NCBI RefSeq assembly: GCF_988242995.1
Contig: NZ_OZ547044.1
Direction: 5' to 3' (one strand)
Length of the DNA: 64,000 bases
Source of the DNA: a plasmid
The stretch's first letter is position 1. Every line of letters begins with the position of its first letter. A program made the position numbers. Below, piece after piece: positions 48,901 to 64,000 of this stretch.

Positions 48901-51900
48901 CACCTGCGCGAATATTTCCATGAACGGCTCCGCGTACATCGACTGAACAGTCAGCAGCTGCCGCGCGCAAATGCGCCCGAATATAATAAACCCGGAGATG
49001 AGCAGCAGAAGTGATTCTTATAGTCAGTGTGTCCAGGGAGGAAATTTTATGCGTATGTCTCTGATGTTTGCAGCCGTGACGCTTTTAACCGGTATTAACC
49101 TGTTTTTTATTCCGTTTCAGCCTGTTCCGGCTCTGTGGGGGGCTATCCTGGCCGTTGCTTTTGTTCTGATTAATGTCGTGGCGGATAAGCTGCGCCTCTG
49201 GAGTGGTATTGCGTGGATTATCGTTGCCGGCATCATCATAACGCTGATGCTGAAGGGGAAAGAGCCGGGTGACGAATTACGCGGGTTGATCACCGTTTTT
49301 GCTTTCCTGGCTTCGGCCTGGTACTGCGTTGTTCAGTACAGAAAAGAGCAGGGCGAATCTCAGTCCTGACCTGACCGGTACCCTTCATCTTGCTGCTGCT
49401 CTTCCTCTGGCTTTGCCTCACTTTCCTTTCACACAATCTGCTCCGGGGCCACCTTCGGCTCCTGACCCGCTGGCGCGGTTCAGTCGTCGAGCCACACTCC
49501 GCTAACCGCGAAAAGACGCGGTAAGCTCCGCCGAACCCGCTACGCGGTTTCGGGCCTGGCGGCTAGTGTCTGATGTCTGACGTCAGGGTCAACGGCAGCG
49601 CTTGCTGCGACCGTCCCGGCCGCGCCGCTTTCACCGTGCCGGCGAAGGACTGCCGGCACTCTGCGGGGCAACGCCGTTTCGCGCCCGCGCTCTTCGTCGT
49701 TGCGGCGGGTGCCTGCTCCTTTCCCCTGGTACCCGTATCACCCGTTTGAGTCCATTCGCCGGGGCTGAGACAAGCACAACCCGTCTTGCTGTCCAGGGGA
49801 CGGCAGGGCCTTTCGCAATAAATTTTTCCCGGCCATTCCGCTGCCGCTTCATTAGGCCGAAAAAAATTTCCCGCTCACCCCCGGACATCTGCACCGGGCC
49901 GTGCTCGTTTACGCCCTTGCGGCGAACGGCTCTCAAACGGGTGAAGTTAATACCAGGGGGCAGGTTCAGCAGGTCCCCGCACAAAGTCAAAACCGCGGCC
50001 CCGGCAACTCAACGGGTGATGTTCTTTAAAAATCAGGAAAAAGAAAAATGCAGGATCCTTCATTGCGAACGTATCGGATCGCATTTCTGGGAAGCAATGC
50101 CAGCGGCAATCTGCCGATGTTTACCCGGGTGCAGGCCACGACCGGAAAACGGGCGATAAAAGCGTTTATTGAACGCTGTGAACCCGTCAAAGGCTGGTTT
50201 CTGGGCGAACCGGAAGACATTACCGATCAGCTTAAGAAGGAGGAAGAAGAAGCGGGAAGCAAACCGCAGATATGAAAAAAGCAGGGTAAACCCTGCTTCT
50301 CCCACGCCGTAAAAATCGCACGAACGGTTTTTCCGGCTTCGTTAACTACCATAAGGAGTCAACTTTATGATCTTTTCTATTTTTTCACCTTCCGCAGGCG
50401 CTGTAAAGCCCCGTCGTCATTCGCGCATTCTGCGCGCAGATATCACCGCACCTGAGATTGATCCCGCTCTCAGAGCTTTCGGGCGTCATATCGCCAGAAG
50501 TCACCGCAAAGGGCGTGGTGTCCACATCCCCGCGATGAAAAATACCGCCCTCGGGCAGGTACTCCGCACGCTGGAACTGAAACGCGCATTTAACTGATGA
50601 GGTGAGCCGCCCCGCGAGGGGCGGCAACTGCAGGAAGGAGAAAACACAATGACACCGACTACCGCACAGATCATGACGGAAAATACCGTCAGCCAGACTT
50701 ACCGGGCAACTTATTCACCCGATGATAATAAATTGCGACTTTACGCATCATTACGGCTCGATGAAGAAACGTATTCCCTGATCAACAAAGCAGGCTTTCG
50801 CTGGGCGCCCAAACAGGAACTCTTTGTGGCGCCAGCCTGGACGCCGGGGCGGGAGGATGTCCTGCTTTCCCTCGCCGGTGATATCGAGGACGAGGACAGC
50901 ACCTTGTTTGATCGCCAGGAGCAGCGCGCCGGGCGGTTCAGTGACTACAGTGACCGGCGGGCGGTTGAATCGGAGCAGGCGCTTGCGCATGTTGATTCGC
51001 TGGCATCGGCTGTCCCGCTGGGACAGCCGATCCTGGTAGGCCACCACAGCGAGCGCCGCGCACGCCGGCATGCGCAGAAAATTGAGAACGGCATGAAACG
51101 TGCGGTGATGCTGTTCGAGCGCGCCGAATACTGGGAACAGCGCGCGCAGGCCTCTCTGCGGCACGCGAAATACAAGGAGCGTCCGGATGTGCGTTACCGC
51201 CGTATCAAAAAAATCGAGGCGGAATTACGCAAGTCCCAAAAGCACATTGCCCGGTCTGAAAAGTATATGACGATGTGGCGTGCGCAGACGCTCGATCTGA
51301 AAATGGCGTTACTGGTCAGTAATTATGACCATATTTATGCCTGCTTCACGCTCGACAAATACCCCCGCCCGGCAGAGAAAAGCCAGTATGAGGGCTCGAT
51401 GTCTCTCCATTCTGCCCTGTCTGAGGAGATCATTACTTTTGAACAGGCGCGTGATATTGCGATCCGCTGTCATGAGCGCACGATTAACCACCAACAGCGC
51501 TGGGTGAATCATTACCAGAACCGCCTGGCCTACGAACGCGCGATGCTCAATGAAAACGGTGGCGTTGTCACCCGAACACAGGAATTTGAACCAGGCGGGC
51601 AGGTACTGAGTCGGGGAGAATGGTTAACCATTCTCCGGGTTAACCGGAGTAAGGGGGAGGTGAGTTCAGTCGAAACGCCCGGTTATCGCTTTCTGGGCTA
51701 CAGCGGCACGATGAAACTCACGCCCGACCGTATCACGGACTACAAAGCCCCGACAGCGGAGGAGGCCAGCAACGCGAAGAAAGCGGCGAAGCGCCCACCG
51801 ATCGTCAATTATCCGGGGGAAGGGTTCCGGGAAATGACAAAAGCCGAGTGGGCGAAATTACCCGCTGATTATAAAGGCGTGCGGGGTGCTGCAGAAACCG

Positions 51901-54900
51901 AAACACACGGCGCCTATCGCTTCCGCCGGTGCATGACGCACGGTTGTACGCTCGTGAATGTGTATATCACAGACATGAAAACCGTTGAAATTCCGAAAAA
52001 ATAACAGGAAGGCTCCCCGGCATCTTGCCGGGGAGGTCAGGGAGTACATTCATGCATCATGACCTTAAACACCGTATTCAGGCGATGCGGGACAAACTGG
52101 AAGGGCGCGCCCCTGTCGCTGAAATTCAGGGTAGCTCGCAACTTTTTGTCACCCCCTCCCCGGAATGTCGCCGGCTGGTTGAGCTGGCTGATGTCCGGGA
52201 AACCGATCGCATTCTGGAACCCAGTGCCGGAACGGGCGCCATACTGCAGGCGATCAGGGATGCAGTCCCCCGGGCGAAGTGTGACGCCGTGGAGCTGCAC
52301 GCCGGGTTAGCCCGTCACCTGCAGGCGCATTTCCCGGAGGTCCGGATCTGGTGCGGAGATTTTCTCGAATATCATCCGGAGCGCCGGTATACCCGAATTA
52401 TCATGAATCCGCCGTTTAATCGCGGTGATGATATCCGACATATCCGGCGGGCATTAACTCTGCTTGAGCCTGGCGGGATTCTGACGGGCATATGTCTGGA
52501 CGGGCCGCGTCAGCAAAAGGCGCTGGAGTCCCTGGCGGACGTCTGGGAGCCATTGCCGCGGGGAACATTCACGTATACCCAGGTAGCGACCGCCATTCTC
52601 AGAATAACCGTCTGATGACACGTTAAGCCGGCGGGGCACCTGTCCCCGTCTGGCCGCGCCTCGAAAGACCGCGCGCCTGCGGCGCCGGGAAAACCGGGCC
52701 GCGCTGACGCGCCGCCCGCATTTCCTTTCCGCGTCTTCCCTGTTTGCTGCCTGCTGTCTGTCTGCTTTCTCTTCTTCTTTCTGCTGTGATGTCTCTTTTT
52801 AACCCTTAAAGGCTTTAAAAGCACACCCATACTGGACACCTTCGGCTCCCGGCCAGCTGCGCTGTCCGGTCGTCGAGCCACACTCCGCTAACCGCGAAAA
52901 GACGCGGTAAGCTCCGCCGAACCCGCAAGCGGTTTCGGGCCTGACGGCTAGTGTCTGATGTCTGAAGTCAAGGTCAACGGCAGCGCTTGCTGCGACCGTC
53001 CCGGTCGCGCCGCTTTCACCGTGCCGGCGAAGGACTGCCGGCACTCTGCGGGGCAACGCCGTTTCGCGCCCGCGCTCTTCGTCGTTGCGGCGGGTGCCTG
53101 CTCCTTTCCCCTGGTACCCGTATCACCCGTTTGAGTCCATTCGCCGGGGCTGAGACAAGCACAACCCGTCTTGCTGTCCAGGGGACGGCAGGGCCTTTCG
53201 CAATAAATTTTTCCCGGCCATTCCGCTGCCGCTTCATTAGGCCGAAAAAAATTTCCCGCTCACCCCCGGACATCTGCACCGGGCCGTGCTCGTTTACGCC
53301 CTCGCGGCGAACGGCTCTCAAACGGGTGAAGGTTATATCCAGGGGGCAGGTTCAGCAGGTCCCCGCAAAACGTCAAAACCGCGGCCCCGGCAACTCAACG
53401 GGTGATGGTTTTAAAAGGCAAAACAACGGATTAAGGAGATTCATCATGGCAGCACGTGGCGTTAACAAAGTCATTCTGGTTGGACATCTGGGACAGGATC
53501 CGGAAGTGCGTTACATGCCCAACGGGGGCGCAGTGGCCAATCTGACGCTGGCCACGTCTGAAACATGGCGTGACAAGCAGACGGGAGAGATGCGCGAAAA
53601 CACCGAGTGGCACCGTGTTGTCATGTTCGGCAAGCTCGCGGAAGTGGCGGGCGAATACCTGCGTAAAGGCGCACAGGTCTACATCGAGGGCCAGCTGCGC
53701 ACCCGCAACTGGCAGGACGATGCCGGAGTCACGCGCTACGTCACCGAGGTGCTGGTCGGGCAGAACGGCACCCTGCAGATGCTCGGCGGCCGCCGTGAAT
53801 CCGGAGTGCCTGAGAGCGCCGCGCAGCCGCAGAATCCTGCCACCCCGGCACAACCTGCTCAGGCCGCAGCTAAATCCCCGAAAGCGAAGGGCGGTAAGAA
53901 AGGCCGTCAGGATGCCGCCCCGTCTCAGCAACCGCCTCAGCCTCTCCCGGATGATTTCCCACCAATGGATGATGACGCGCCCTTTTAAACCACGATGAAG
54001 ACGCCCCGTTCAGGCGGGGCAGAAAAGGAGAAACACATGGACCATAACGTTTTGTCCCCGCTTGAATCCCTGCCGGATGGCACGTTTACCCGCGAGCAGG
54101 CTCAGATTGTCGCAGCGCAGTATCAGAATGTGGCGATTGAAGATGATCAGGGGACCCATTTTCGCCTTGTCGTCCGTCATCAGGATGACGGCAGCATGAT
54201 CTGGCGCGTCTGGAATTTTGAACCGGGCGGCGAGGACATGATGAACCGCTACATCCGGGACTACGGAGTACGCAAAACGAAGTAAGCAGTAAGAAGAAGG
54301 CCGGACAGGTGGGCTGTCCGGCAGACATTCATCAATAGCTAAGAGGTATCAATTATGTCTGCAACAGAGTCTAAGGTAAAAACTGCACCGAAAACCAGCA
54401 AAAAAACGCTTAAGTCTGCCGAAGCTGAGGCGCTTAAAGTGGCTCTCGATGCCGCACAGGTCGAGTATGTCCCGGTGACGGCACTGGTGAAGTCTCCCCT
54501 GAACGTCAGGACCATTCCCTATCCGGCGGAGAAAGTCTGTTCAATGGCAGATTCCATTGAAGCCATTGGCCTGTTGCAGAATCTGGTCGTGCATAACCTC
54601 CCGGATGGTCGCTGTGGTGTGGCTGCCGGTGGTCGTCGCCTGAAAGCGCTGCAGCTCCTGCAGAGTGAAAACCGTATCGATGCCGGATATCAGGTGATGG
54701 TGAAAAAGGTACCTGATGAACTGGCTGTTGCGGCATCAATGGCAGAAAACGAACAGCAGATGGCAATGCATCCGTCTGAACAGATCGCCGGGTTCCGCAC
54801 ACTGGCAGTGCAGGGGAAAACCCCCGCGCAGATTGGCGATTTACTGGGGTTCGGTACGCGTCATGTTCAGCGCATGTTGAAACTGACCGAACTGGCTCCC

Positions 54901-63900: not shown

Positions 63901-64000
63901 ACGGCTCTCAAACGGGTGAAGGTTATATCCAGGGGGCAGGTTCAGCAGGTCCCCGCACAAAGTCAAAACCGCGGCCCCGGCAACTCAACGGGTGATGGTT

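Follow-up and report, generated by a model that had tools for sequence, protein, structure and literature searches.

Introduction

In the F plasmid, the leading region carries two single-stranded DNA (ssDNA) promoters of class 1 (ssp1), Frpo1 (ssiD; Masai & Arai 1997) and Frpo2 (Couturier et al. 2023), for which the transferred strand (T-strand) serves as the template. Deletion of Frpo1/Frpo2 abolishes early expression in F (PMC9849209), and the start sites of the class 1 promoters of pESBL have been mapped by 5' rapid amplification of cDNA ends (PMC12672017). Here, a 64,000-nt stretch of plasmid DNA (contig NZ_OZ547044.1 of NCBI RefSeq assembly GCF_988242995.1), referred to as the window, was analyzed with respect to four repeats of 600-800 bp (copies 1-4), which a first-pass annotation of the sequence had described as Frpo/ssi-like. 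Each repeat is very probably the non-coding head of a leading-region gene module and would act on the transferred single strand as an Frpo-type ssDNA promoter.

Class 1 elements are also known from the IncI1 plasmids ColIb-P9/pESBL, where three dispersed repeats of about 328 nt (ssi1-ssi3) head the operons of ssb, psiB and ardA. A survey reported 13,089 Frpo homologues in 6,006 conjugative elements and described an island of Serratia marcescens (CP047692.1) with one Frpo and three Frpo' candidates (Samuel et al. 2024). Two further classes of long T-strand hairpins likewise head gene modules, namely class 2 (ssp2/'Frpo3'), located upstream of ardB/klcA, and class 3, located upstream of M.EcoGIX-type methylase genes, but their sequences are unrelated to class 1. 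The minus-strand origins of the filamentous phages M13/f1 and the rolling-circle ssoA are conceptual relatives only, of the hairpin and possibly also of the second structured element described below (module X): they are folded ssDNA read by host RNA polymerase to make a primer, but they prime replication only and do not serve mRNA synthesis. Since multiplicity and recombination of Frpo repeats have been documented for F, for IncI plasmids and for a near-identical Serratia plasmid, the finding as stated is already known.

Results and Discussion

Four Co-Oriented Repeats Head the Gene Modules of the Leading Region

Repeat detection was run on positions 47000-64000 and on the whole window and was combined with gapped alignment, for which copy 4 was completed from the record of plasmid pGSU10-3-2 (L001). 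Four direct repeats in the same orientation were obtained, with a shared core of about 630 alignment columns in the multiple alignment, and neither the repeat search nor the covariance model R1 (see below) revealed further copies elsewhere in the window.

49440..50035, minus strand: repeat copy 1, whole unit; heads the module orf75-orf76-DUF3560-methyltransferase (repeat search, alignment)
52633..53435, minus strand: repeat copy 2, whole unit; heads the module ssb-DUF905-parB-like-psiB-psiA-...-hok/sok (repeat search, alignment)
53446..53988, plus strand: ssb, first gene downstream of copy 2; Frpo2 and ssb of F are arranged alike
60650..61255 (left end approximate), minus strand: repeat copy 3, whole unit; heads the module orf118-...-relE/parE-HTH (repeat search, alignment)
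63224..64000, minus strand: repeat copy 4, clipped at the window end; continues for about 30 nt in the full record, to window-equivalent position ~64030

Two four-member repeat families were found, consisting of 300-nt blocks starting at 49544/52929/60804/63520 and of 181-nt blocks starting at 49845/53230/61049/63820, while a two-member 300-nt block (52633/63224) was common to copies 2 and 4 only. The first-pass annotation had placed the four repeats correctly; in copy 3, the homology begins about 40 nt to the left of 60690. Its description of copies 2 and 4 as near-identical over about 770 bp also held, with 97-100% identity in all blocks and 99% overall across a total of about 778 bp. Copy 1 was 99% identical to copy 2 within the 300-nt core. 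Copy 3 differed in the hairpin apex, which is 60 nt shorter, and in a distal internal helix.

As had been proposed, the repeats are non-coding and end just ahead of a gene start: an AAGGAG-type Shine-Dalgarno (SD) sequence and a start codon follow 10-20 nt past the end of every copy, the first start codons being located at 50048, 53446 (ssb), 61266 and, for the DUF932 open reading frame (ORF) downstream of copy 4, at L001 position 24031. Each copy heads a gene module, and the repeats partition the leading region in the way previously suggested. Their description as GC-rich was correct insofar as their GC content lies above the background, but with 62-63% versus 54-55% in the surroundings they are only moderately so.

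Outside the shared core, an additional GC-rich flank of about 150 bp is common to copies 2 and 4 (52633-52790, 63224-63381); it lies right after the upstream stop codons and starts with a GGGGCA..TGTCCCC hairpin. A recent event of gene conversion or duplication, which took in a terminator-like flank, is suggested by this. Ahead of each repeat, a tract rich in CT (and hence in purines on the T-strand) and, after it, a box rich in A/T were observed (52700-52832 at copy 2), and the same succession precedes the F repeat (F locus L002, 15400-15470). Copy 4 lies directly ahead of a 253-aa DUF932/YgeB-like ORF (L001 24031-24792) that is absent from the PLSDB gene table; the F homologue has about 273 aa, with ygeA between Frpo1 and the homologue. 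In Klebsiella, the DUF932 gene may have lost part of its C-terminal end or may carry a pseudogene flag.

The Minus Strand of the Window Is the Transferred Strand

The 15-kb region proved 100% identical to many IncFII plasmids (MOBF, MPF_F) of Klebsiella, Enterobacter and E. coli, conjugative IncFII plasmids of Klebsiella being the best matches. What the window shows is the leading region of an IncFII(K)/MOBF/MPF_F plasmid of Klebsiella that is conjugative. In pGSU10-3-2, the order is umuDC, parM, DNA methylase, DUF1380, antirestriction, ardA, copy 1, two small ORFs, DUF3560 and methyltransferase, followed by copy 2, ssb, DUF905, parB-like, psiB, psiA, hok/sok, copy 3, small ORFs, relE/parE and HTH, and finally by copy 4, DUF932, DUF5983, SLT (on the opposite strand), the oriT gap, traM, traY and traA. 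The leading genes downstream of the repeats are all encoded on the plus strand, and F shows the same gene order and orientation.

In the co-oriented F locus, the F nic sequence GTGGGGTGTGGTGCTTT is found on the minus strand, and L001 has a variant with three mismatches (GTAGTGTGTGGTGATTT) in its SLT-traM gap, likewise on the minus strand. In transfer of the F type, the 5' end of the nicked strand goes in first, and the leading region precedes the rest. Thus, it is the minus strand of the window that is transferred, i.e., the template for all plus-strand leading genes, and copy 4 enters the recipient first and copy 1 last.

The Gene-Proximal Half of Each Repeat Folds into an Frpo-Type Hairpin

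On the minus strand, copy 2 (661 nt) folded with a free energy (dG) of -175.6 kcal/mol and a z-score (z) of -8.1, mostly as one imperfect hairpin at 53065-53389. Corresponding hairpins of 270-325 nt, i.e., about half of each repeat, were predicted at the gene-proximal side of all copies.

49680..50004, minus strand: predicted class 1 (Frpo-type) T-strand hairpin of copy 1; dG -100.5 kcal/mol, z -9.19
53065..53389, minus strand: predicted class 1 T-strand hairpin of copy 2, directly upstream of ssb; dG -100.7 kcal/mol, z -9.18
60940..61208, minus strand: predicted class 1 hairpin of copy 3, with a short type C apex lacking the A/T-rich apical stem; dG -91.4 kcal/mol, z -9.84
63656..63979, minus strand: predicted class 1 hairpin of copy 4; dG -90.7 kcal/mol, z -7.88
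52992..53044, minus strand: two short GC-rich T-strand hairpins between module X (see below) and the main hairpin of copy 2, GTGCCGGC...GCCGGCAC and CGACCG-GGA-CGGTCG

Thus, the secondary-structure prediction for the transferred strand that had been suggested as a check on the repeats returned stable hairpins (dG -90.7 to -100.7 kcal/mol, z -7.9 to -9.8). In copy 2, the plus strand reached only -79.9 kcal/mol (z -5.92), which is 20.8 kcal/mol weaker than the T-strand, and the fold is therefore strand-biased. Counterparts of the two short GC-rich hairpins are present in the Frpo/ssi elements of F and ColIb.

The copies were compared by blastn (E<=1e-5) with the sequences of Supplementary Table 2 of Samuel et al. 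2024. Copies 1, 2 and 4 matched F ssiD, the original Frpo, with 67-68% identity over 360-373 nt (E 2e-22 to 3e-20), while copy 3 matched it in two segments of about 140 nt (71-73%, E about 1e-13). Much higher identities were obtained with the candidates of S. marcescens CP047692.1: 99.2% over 397 nt for copy 1 ('Frpo' 3'), 98.7% for copy 4 ('Frpo' 1'), 96-99% for copy 2 and 92-96% in two segments for copy 3.

A T-strand alignment of 14 sequences (the four copies of the window, F Frpo1/2, six divergent plasmids, and two sequences from metagenomes) yielded a consensus hairpin of 77 pairs with nine compensatory pairs and many invariant blocks. Three apex types were distinguished, namely type A (copies 1, 2 and 4 and Edwardsiella), type B (F-like plasmids) and the short type C (copy 3, Citrobacter, pSB89A and the metagenome sequences). 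The three apex sequences differ, and each pairs best with its own partner arm. When arms were swapped between sequences, most sequences favoured their own arms over foreign ones at the apex and in the upper stem, and only for these parts was the outcome convincing. In the lower-middle stem it was mixed: the Klebsiella-type copies, F Frpo1, pSB89A and insect6 paired best with their own arms, and the other seven lineages did not.

With regard to F, the likeness extends to the place in the leading region, the use of the T-strand as template, the imperfect hairpin of about 330 nt with about 68% identity and long invariant blocks, and the arrangement of the genes, since Frpo2 lies ahead of ssb and Frpo1 heads the ygeA/DUF932 module in the same manner as copies 2 and 4. 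In both plasmids the repeats reach beyond the hairpin and are recombination substrates. F differs by having two copies versus four here, by its type B apex versus type A (copies 1, 2 and 4) or C (copy 3), and by a distal segment that looks unrelated and gives no R1 match, whereas the Klebsiella repeats carry module X. The match to the Serratia island takes in the gene-proximal flanks, and with one Frpo upstream of ssb and three candidates this island holds four elements, as does the window; there is no substantial difference, and it is in essence this leading region in a different host. Samuel et al. 2024 listed windows of 400 nt and left the distal module undissected. By eye, the IncI1 elements of ColIb-P9 have in common with the window copies a conserved GTCCGGGGG/CCCCTGGAC helix, a bulge on one side and an apical stem rich in A/T.

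Homology to F ssiD, near-identity to published Frpo' candidates, the strand relative to nic, the strand-specific hairpin and the covarying arms support the Frpo/ssi-like identity that had been proposed, and by sequence, position, strand and fold the repeats are best assigned to the F-type class 1 Frpo/ssi/ssp1 family. For the whole unit of 600-800 bp this applies in part: about half is the Frpo hairpin, but the remainder includes a separate conserved structured element, described below.

Candidate Promoter Boxes and Points against Promoter Function

Some results weigh against a promoter function of the repeats. First, a linear sigma-70 consensus scan of copy 2 gave no site; this point is weak, and the scan is uninformative because the validated Frpo1/2 of F likewise score zero. 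Second, a weight-matrix scan across the 14 aligned homologues returned moderate candidates only, without conserved -10 hexamers and without a single conserved pair of boxes. Third, copy 3 lacks the A/T-rich apical stem of the other copies and of F and may be weaker or inactive. Fourth, ColIb-P9 ssi1-3 showed no blastn match to the window copies at E<=1e-5, and the apex architecture alone is shared. ColIb-P9/pESBL also have a different backbone (MOBP/MPF_I), and on sequence grounds the window copies fall into the F-like and not the IncI subgroup.

Three sets of candidate boxes were noted. In the gene-proximal arm towards the apex, an invariant TTGAC(G/T) is followed after 17 nt by GAACCT in the Klebsiella type (7.2 bits), the latter position not being conserved in other lineages. 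Also in the gene-proximal arm, an invariant TTGAGA is followed after 18-19 nt by TAAAC(G/C), with the -10 box within a conserved 4x4 internal loop. By inspection, a third set was recognized in the distal arm near the apex, where an A/T tract precedes TTGCGA, a spacer of 15-17 nt and an invariant TGGAC (TTGCGA-17-TGGACA); TTGCGA reads TTGCGG in F and TTGTGG in ColIb. Either hairpin arm can geometrically be the non-template strand for plus-sense RNA.

A Second Structured Element, Module X, Occupies the Distal Part of Each Repeat

The repeats are about twice as long as the canonical Frpo of 328 nt, and in the extra part, between the short GC-rich hairpins and the upstream gene, lies a multi-helix junction of about 140 nt that F lacks, termed module X here. 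It consists of a closing helix and four or five hairpins and was detected in the distal part of each repeat with the covariance model R1.

49442..49589, minus strand: module X of copy 1, multi-helix junction on the T-strand; R1 125.6 bits, E 1.5e-33
52829..52974, minus strand: module X of copy 2; R1 132 bits, E 2.2e-35; structure and covariation
60700..60849, minus strand: module X of copy 3, with a long-form P2 helix; R1 124.7 bits
63420..63565, minus strand: module X of copy 4; R1 132 bits
Outside the window, in comparison loci: module X at L011 2467-2602 and in L017-L063

Module X contains the invariant unpaired blocks CATCAGACnCTAGC / CGGAG / AGCGGAGTG / GACGA / GCCGAAGG and an invariant T.G wobble in the closing helix. 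Three double substitutions in one stem distinguish copy 1 from copy 2. Among ten module X sequences from different backbones, the invariant blocks stood between helices of changed sequence and kept pairing: 98.8% of the alignment cells paired, compared with 31-54% when the partners were slid, and 10 pairs showed double changes versus 5.2 ± 1.2 in shuffled alignments (0/500). A species-representative genome collection was then scanned with a pattern of the invariant core, and 47 stretches from about 30 Enterobacterales species with 60 distinct module X sequences were obtained. The bearing genera were Pantoea, Mixta, Erwinia, Yersinia, Rahnella, Buttiauxella, Kluyvera, Citrobacter, Raoultella, Enterobacter and others, usually with several co-oriented copies a few kb apart. 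For an alignment of 46 sequences, six helices (31 pairs) were defined explicitly, and 95.7% of the cells paired versus 26-59% with slid partners; double changes occurred in 153 cells compared with 57 ± 5 after shuffling (0/500), and the covariation score was 0.281 versus 0.106 (0/500). The counts of pairs with double changes and of pair types in this alignment did not exceed those of the shuffles. The covariation signal at 46-sequence depth is the consistency of compensation.

The element is strand-specific. Read in T-strand orientation, its wobbles were 60 G.T versus 4 A.C, all nine of nine sequences folded better in this orientation (DNA parameters), and R1 scored the four window copies with 125-132 bits on the minus strand versus about 10 bits on the plus strand.

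The module X segment alone was present in 4,679 PLSDB plasmids at 13,069 places, few of them in Escherichia, and a partial module X occurs in IncL/M plasmids of about 63 kb without an adjacent F-type hairpin. R1 found one module X in an F-like E. coli plasmid, none in F, and none near the class 2- or class 3-like hairpins of the window. At least three of the four signature motifs of F/Klebsiella class 1 were present on the promoter side in only 13 of the 60 X copies, and about 40 of 50 were flanked by a GC-rich region that folds into a hairpin of 250-430 nt (z -4 to -17, mononucleotide shuffles). On the complementary strand, an SD sequence and an ORF followed 300-480 nt after X in 45 of 49 cases (median 343), compared with 25 of 49 at scattered distances in the reverse-direction control.

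No Rfam match to module X or to the hairpin was obtained at E<=1 over 44000-64000, and at E<=10 over 52780-53080 the matches were noise only. A literature search for the invariant strings of X returned an unrelated primer only. Module X is apparently undescribed and is the only potentially new part of the present locus; it is reported as a lead and not as a result. Tentatively, and with somewhat less than even confidence, it is regarded as a distinct functional ssDNA element that goes beyond a mere flank of Frpo and accompanies several hairpin types across Enterobacterales. It would be an optional accessory to ssDNA promoters with long hairpins and would act in the transferred strand. Its role can be guessed as that of an insulator or roadblock guarding the hairpin against upstream read-through or early conversion, of a means of stalling conversion and thereby prolonging the single-stranded state, or of a priming or protein-loading site. 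In F, ssp2 stalls complementary-strand conversion (bioRxiv 10.64898/2026.01.09.698686). If module X is functional, it would be a new component in the lately revived model of early transcription coordinated with double-strand conversion.

Two other assignments of module X were considered. As a class 3 ssDNA promoter it was rejected, since R1 gave no match upstream of the DNA methylase gene or beside the class 2-like hairpins. As a minus-sense small RNA gene it is unsupported; around X, no convincing -35/-10 pair and no convincing terminator were seen by eye. Some X copies show additional motifs at their ends: a perfect DnaA-box-like TTATCCACA abuts the 3' end in two of the 60 copies (L024 ~2230, L028 ~480), and in the Pantoea group GCCATCAG is found at both ends as a short direct repeat.

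Proposed Mode of Action and Alternative Explanations

On arrival of the T-strand in the recipient, each hairpin would fold and mimic duplex promoter DNA, from which the sigma-70 RNA polymerase of the host would transcribe the downstream plus-sense genes before the complementary strand exists. The modules switched on would comprise ssb/psiB/psiA, the methyltransferase, the toxin-antitoxin genes and DUF932. The hairpin transcripts could also prime complementary-strand synthesis, and conversion to the duplex would iron out the hairpin and turn the promoter off. For the four repeats, promoter and priming activity is inferred from the experiments with F and ColIb/pESBL. Annotated in this way, 'intergenic' DNA amounting to about 3 kb, in a family of Klebsiella resistance plasmids that is clinically dominant, would represent four class 1 ssDNA promoters, each copy marking genes that are likely expressed first in a new host (orf75 to methyltransferase, ssb/psiB/psiA, the relE/parE toxin-antitoxin genes and DUF932).

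Four alternative explanations were weighed. It is rather unlikely that the repeats are mainly ssi priming signals for complementary-strand synthesis and not promoters, with module X as a primase- or PriA-type site present once per module. Frpo was originally isolated as an ssi, with transcripts that serve as primers for DNA synthesis; in addition, module X is strand-specific, structured and located 3' on the T-strand of each module, so that a primer laid down there would convert the whole module. However, priming and transcription by Frpo are not mutually exclusive, deletion of Frpo1/2 abolishes early protein production in F, and F itself lacks module X and converts normally.

An explanation at the level of RNA or duplex DNA, with the repeats as structured plus-sense leaders (5' untranslated regions) or ordinary duplex promoter/terminator regions and the DNA hairpin as incidental, is improbable in view of the strand preferences of the hairpin (20.8 kcal/mol) and of module X (G.T versus A.C wobbles, R1 scores of about 130 versus about 10 bits). 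Each repeat does lie directly upstream of an SD sequence and a gene, and the invariant blocks without covariation in the gene-proximal arm could reflect a function of RNA or duplex, but scans of the repeats found no consensus duplex promoter, no intrinsic terminator and no Rfam family.

Still less probable is a role as selfish dispersed repeats, similar to miniature inverted-repeat transposable elements, or as recombination scars with no part in expression. While the copies are dispersed, recombine with each other and, in the case of copies 2 and 4, look homogenised (99% including the extra flank of about 150 bp), they are always co-oriented with the T-strand as template and end at an SD sequence and start codon, their arrangement is kept across genera with covarying stems, and their homologues are experimentally required for early expression in F. 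Finally, an ATG-initiated ORF of 58 codons is found at the same place in every copy, but a small conserved protein can be dismissed as hardly credible, since in copy 3 the frame is shifted for about 30 codons (residues ~25-54) before it returns, giving an unrelated peptide, no SD sequence lies upstream, and the ORF is inside the covarying hairpin arm.

Four Copies Are the Usual Number, and Recombination between Copies Has Occurred

The hairpin of copy 2 alone matched at least 5000 PLSDB plasmids; among the matches listed, it was found at 16,345 places, i.e., about 3.3 per plasmid, and the plasmids were mostly from Klebsiella and Escherichia, with 79% typed as conjugative. In the sampled close Klebsiella relatives, four copies were the commonest count (range 1-8), while E. 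coli F-like plasmids mostly had 2-4 copies. Because four is the commonest count in close relatives, about 3.3 is the mean in at least 5000 plasmids and the Serratia island combines one Frpo with three Frpo' candidates, four copies are normal, and the first-pass view of a dense arrangement has to be given up: this is the usual number for the plasmid family.

The additional proposal that the repeats are recombination hotspots was borne out by a natural deletion variant. Plasmid p17129-KPC (NZ_MT955362.1), typed as conjugative, carries two repeat copies, and at 12200-14600 (L003) just one repeat stands between the methyltransferase gene and the downstream series DUF932-DUF5983-SLT-traM. Compared with L001, the junction aligned with the methyltransferase gene and copy 2 at 99.2% and with copy 4 and DUF932 at 98.8%, the two alignments overlapping over the repeat of 778 bp. 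By sequence, this corresponds to the expected product of homologous recombination between copies 2 and 4 with deletion of 10,591 bp. The deletion removes ssb, the parB-like gene, psiB, psiA, hok/sok and relE/parE (ssb to relE); thus, the block for SOS inhibition and hok/sok can be lost in a single recombination step, with the plasmid still typed as conjugative. The risk of recombination between Frpo1 and Frpo2 of F has been pointed out earlier (PMC9849209). In IncI plasmids including the ColIb-P9 type, recombination between the repeats likewise deletes the intervening module (Venturini 2013), and an equivalent loss of 9.7 kb between Frpo repeats has been described (PMC3817090).

Other Elements in the Window

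In the 680-bp gap upstream of the ArdB/KlcA-like antirestriction gene (46683-47360, minus strand), two tandem long T-strand hairpins were predicted, together with a dG of -167.9 kcal/mol over 688 nt. They hold a direct repeat of 69 nt (46842-46910 / 47086-47154) and match the published Frpo' 4 and Frpo* 1/3 with 72-78% over 70-126 nt. Because of this resemblance, they probably represent a duplicated ssDNA promoter of class 2 (ssp2-type). In the gap upstream of the DNA methylase gene (43914-44508, minus strand), a long T-strand hairpin with a dG of -124.9 kcal/mol over 607 nt was predicted, which may be a class 3 ssDNA promoter as found upstream of M.EcoGIX-type methylases.

Two RNA families were recognized by Rfam matches. 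AS-pc01, an antisense RNA first seen on pHK01 (Rfam), matched at 50276-50372 (minus strand, 97.7 bits) between two small ORFs downstream of copy 1, and the sok antitoxin RNA of hok/sok matched at 58425-58598 (plus strand, 67.3 bits). Two arrays of the 8-bp tandem repeat GATAACAA (37269-37376 and 38396-38519), about 1.1 kb apart, are possibly iterons or a partition site. Finally, repeat pairs with 100% identity over at least 300 nt were observed at 1-300 / 7600-7899 and 4755-5054 / 26373-26672; these are probably copies of insertion sequences in the resistance region.

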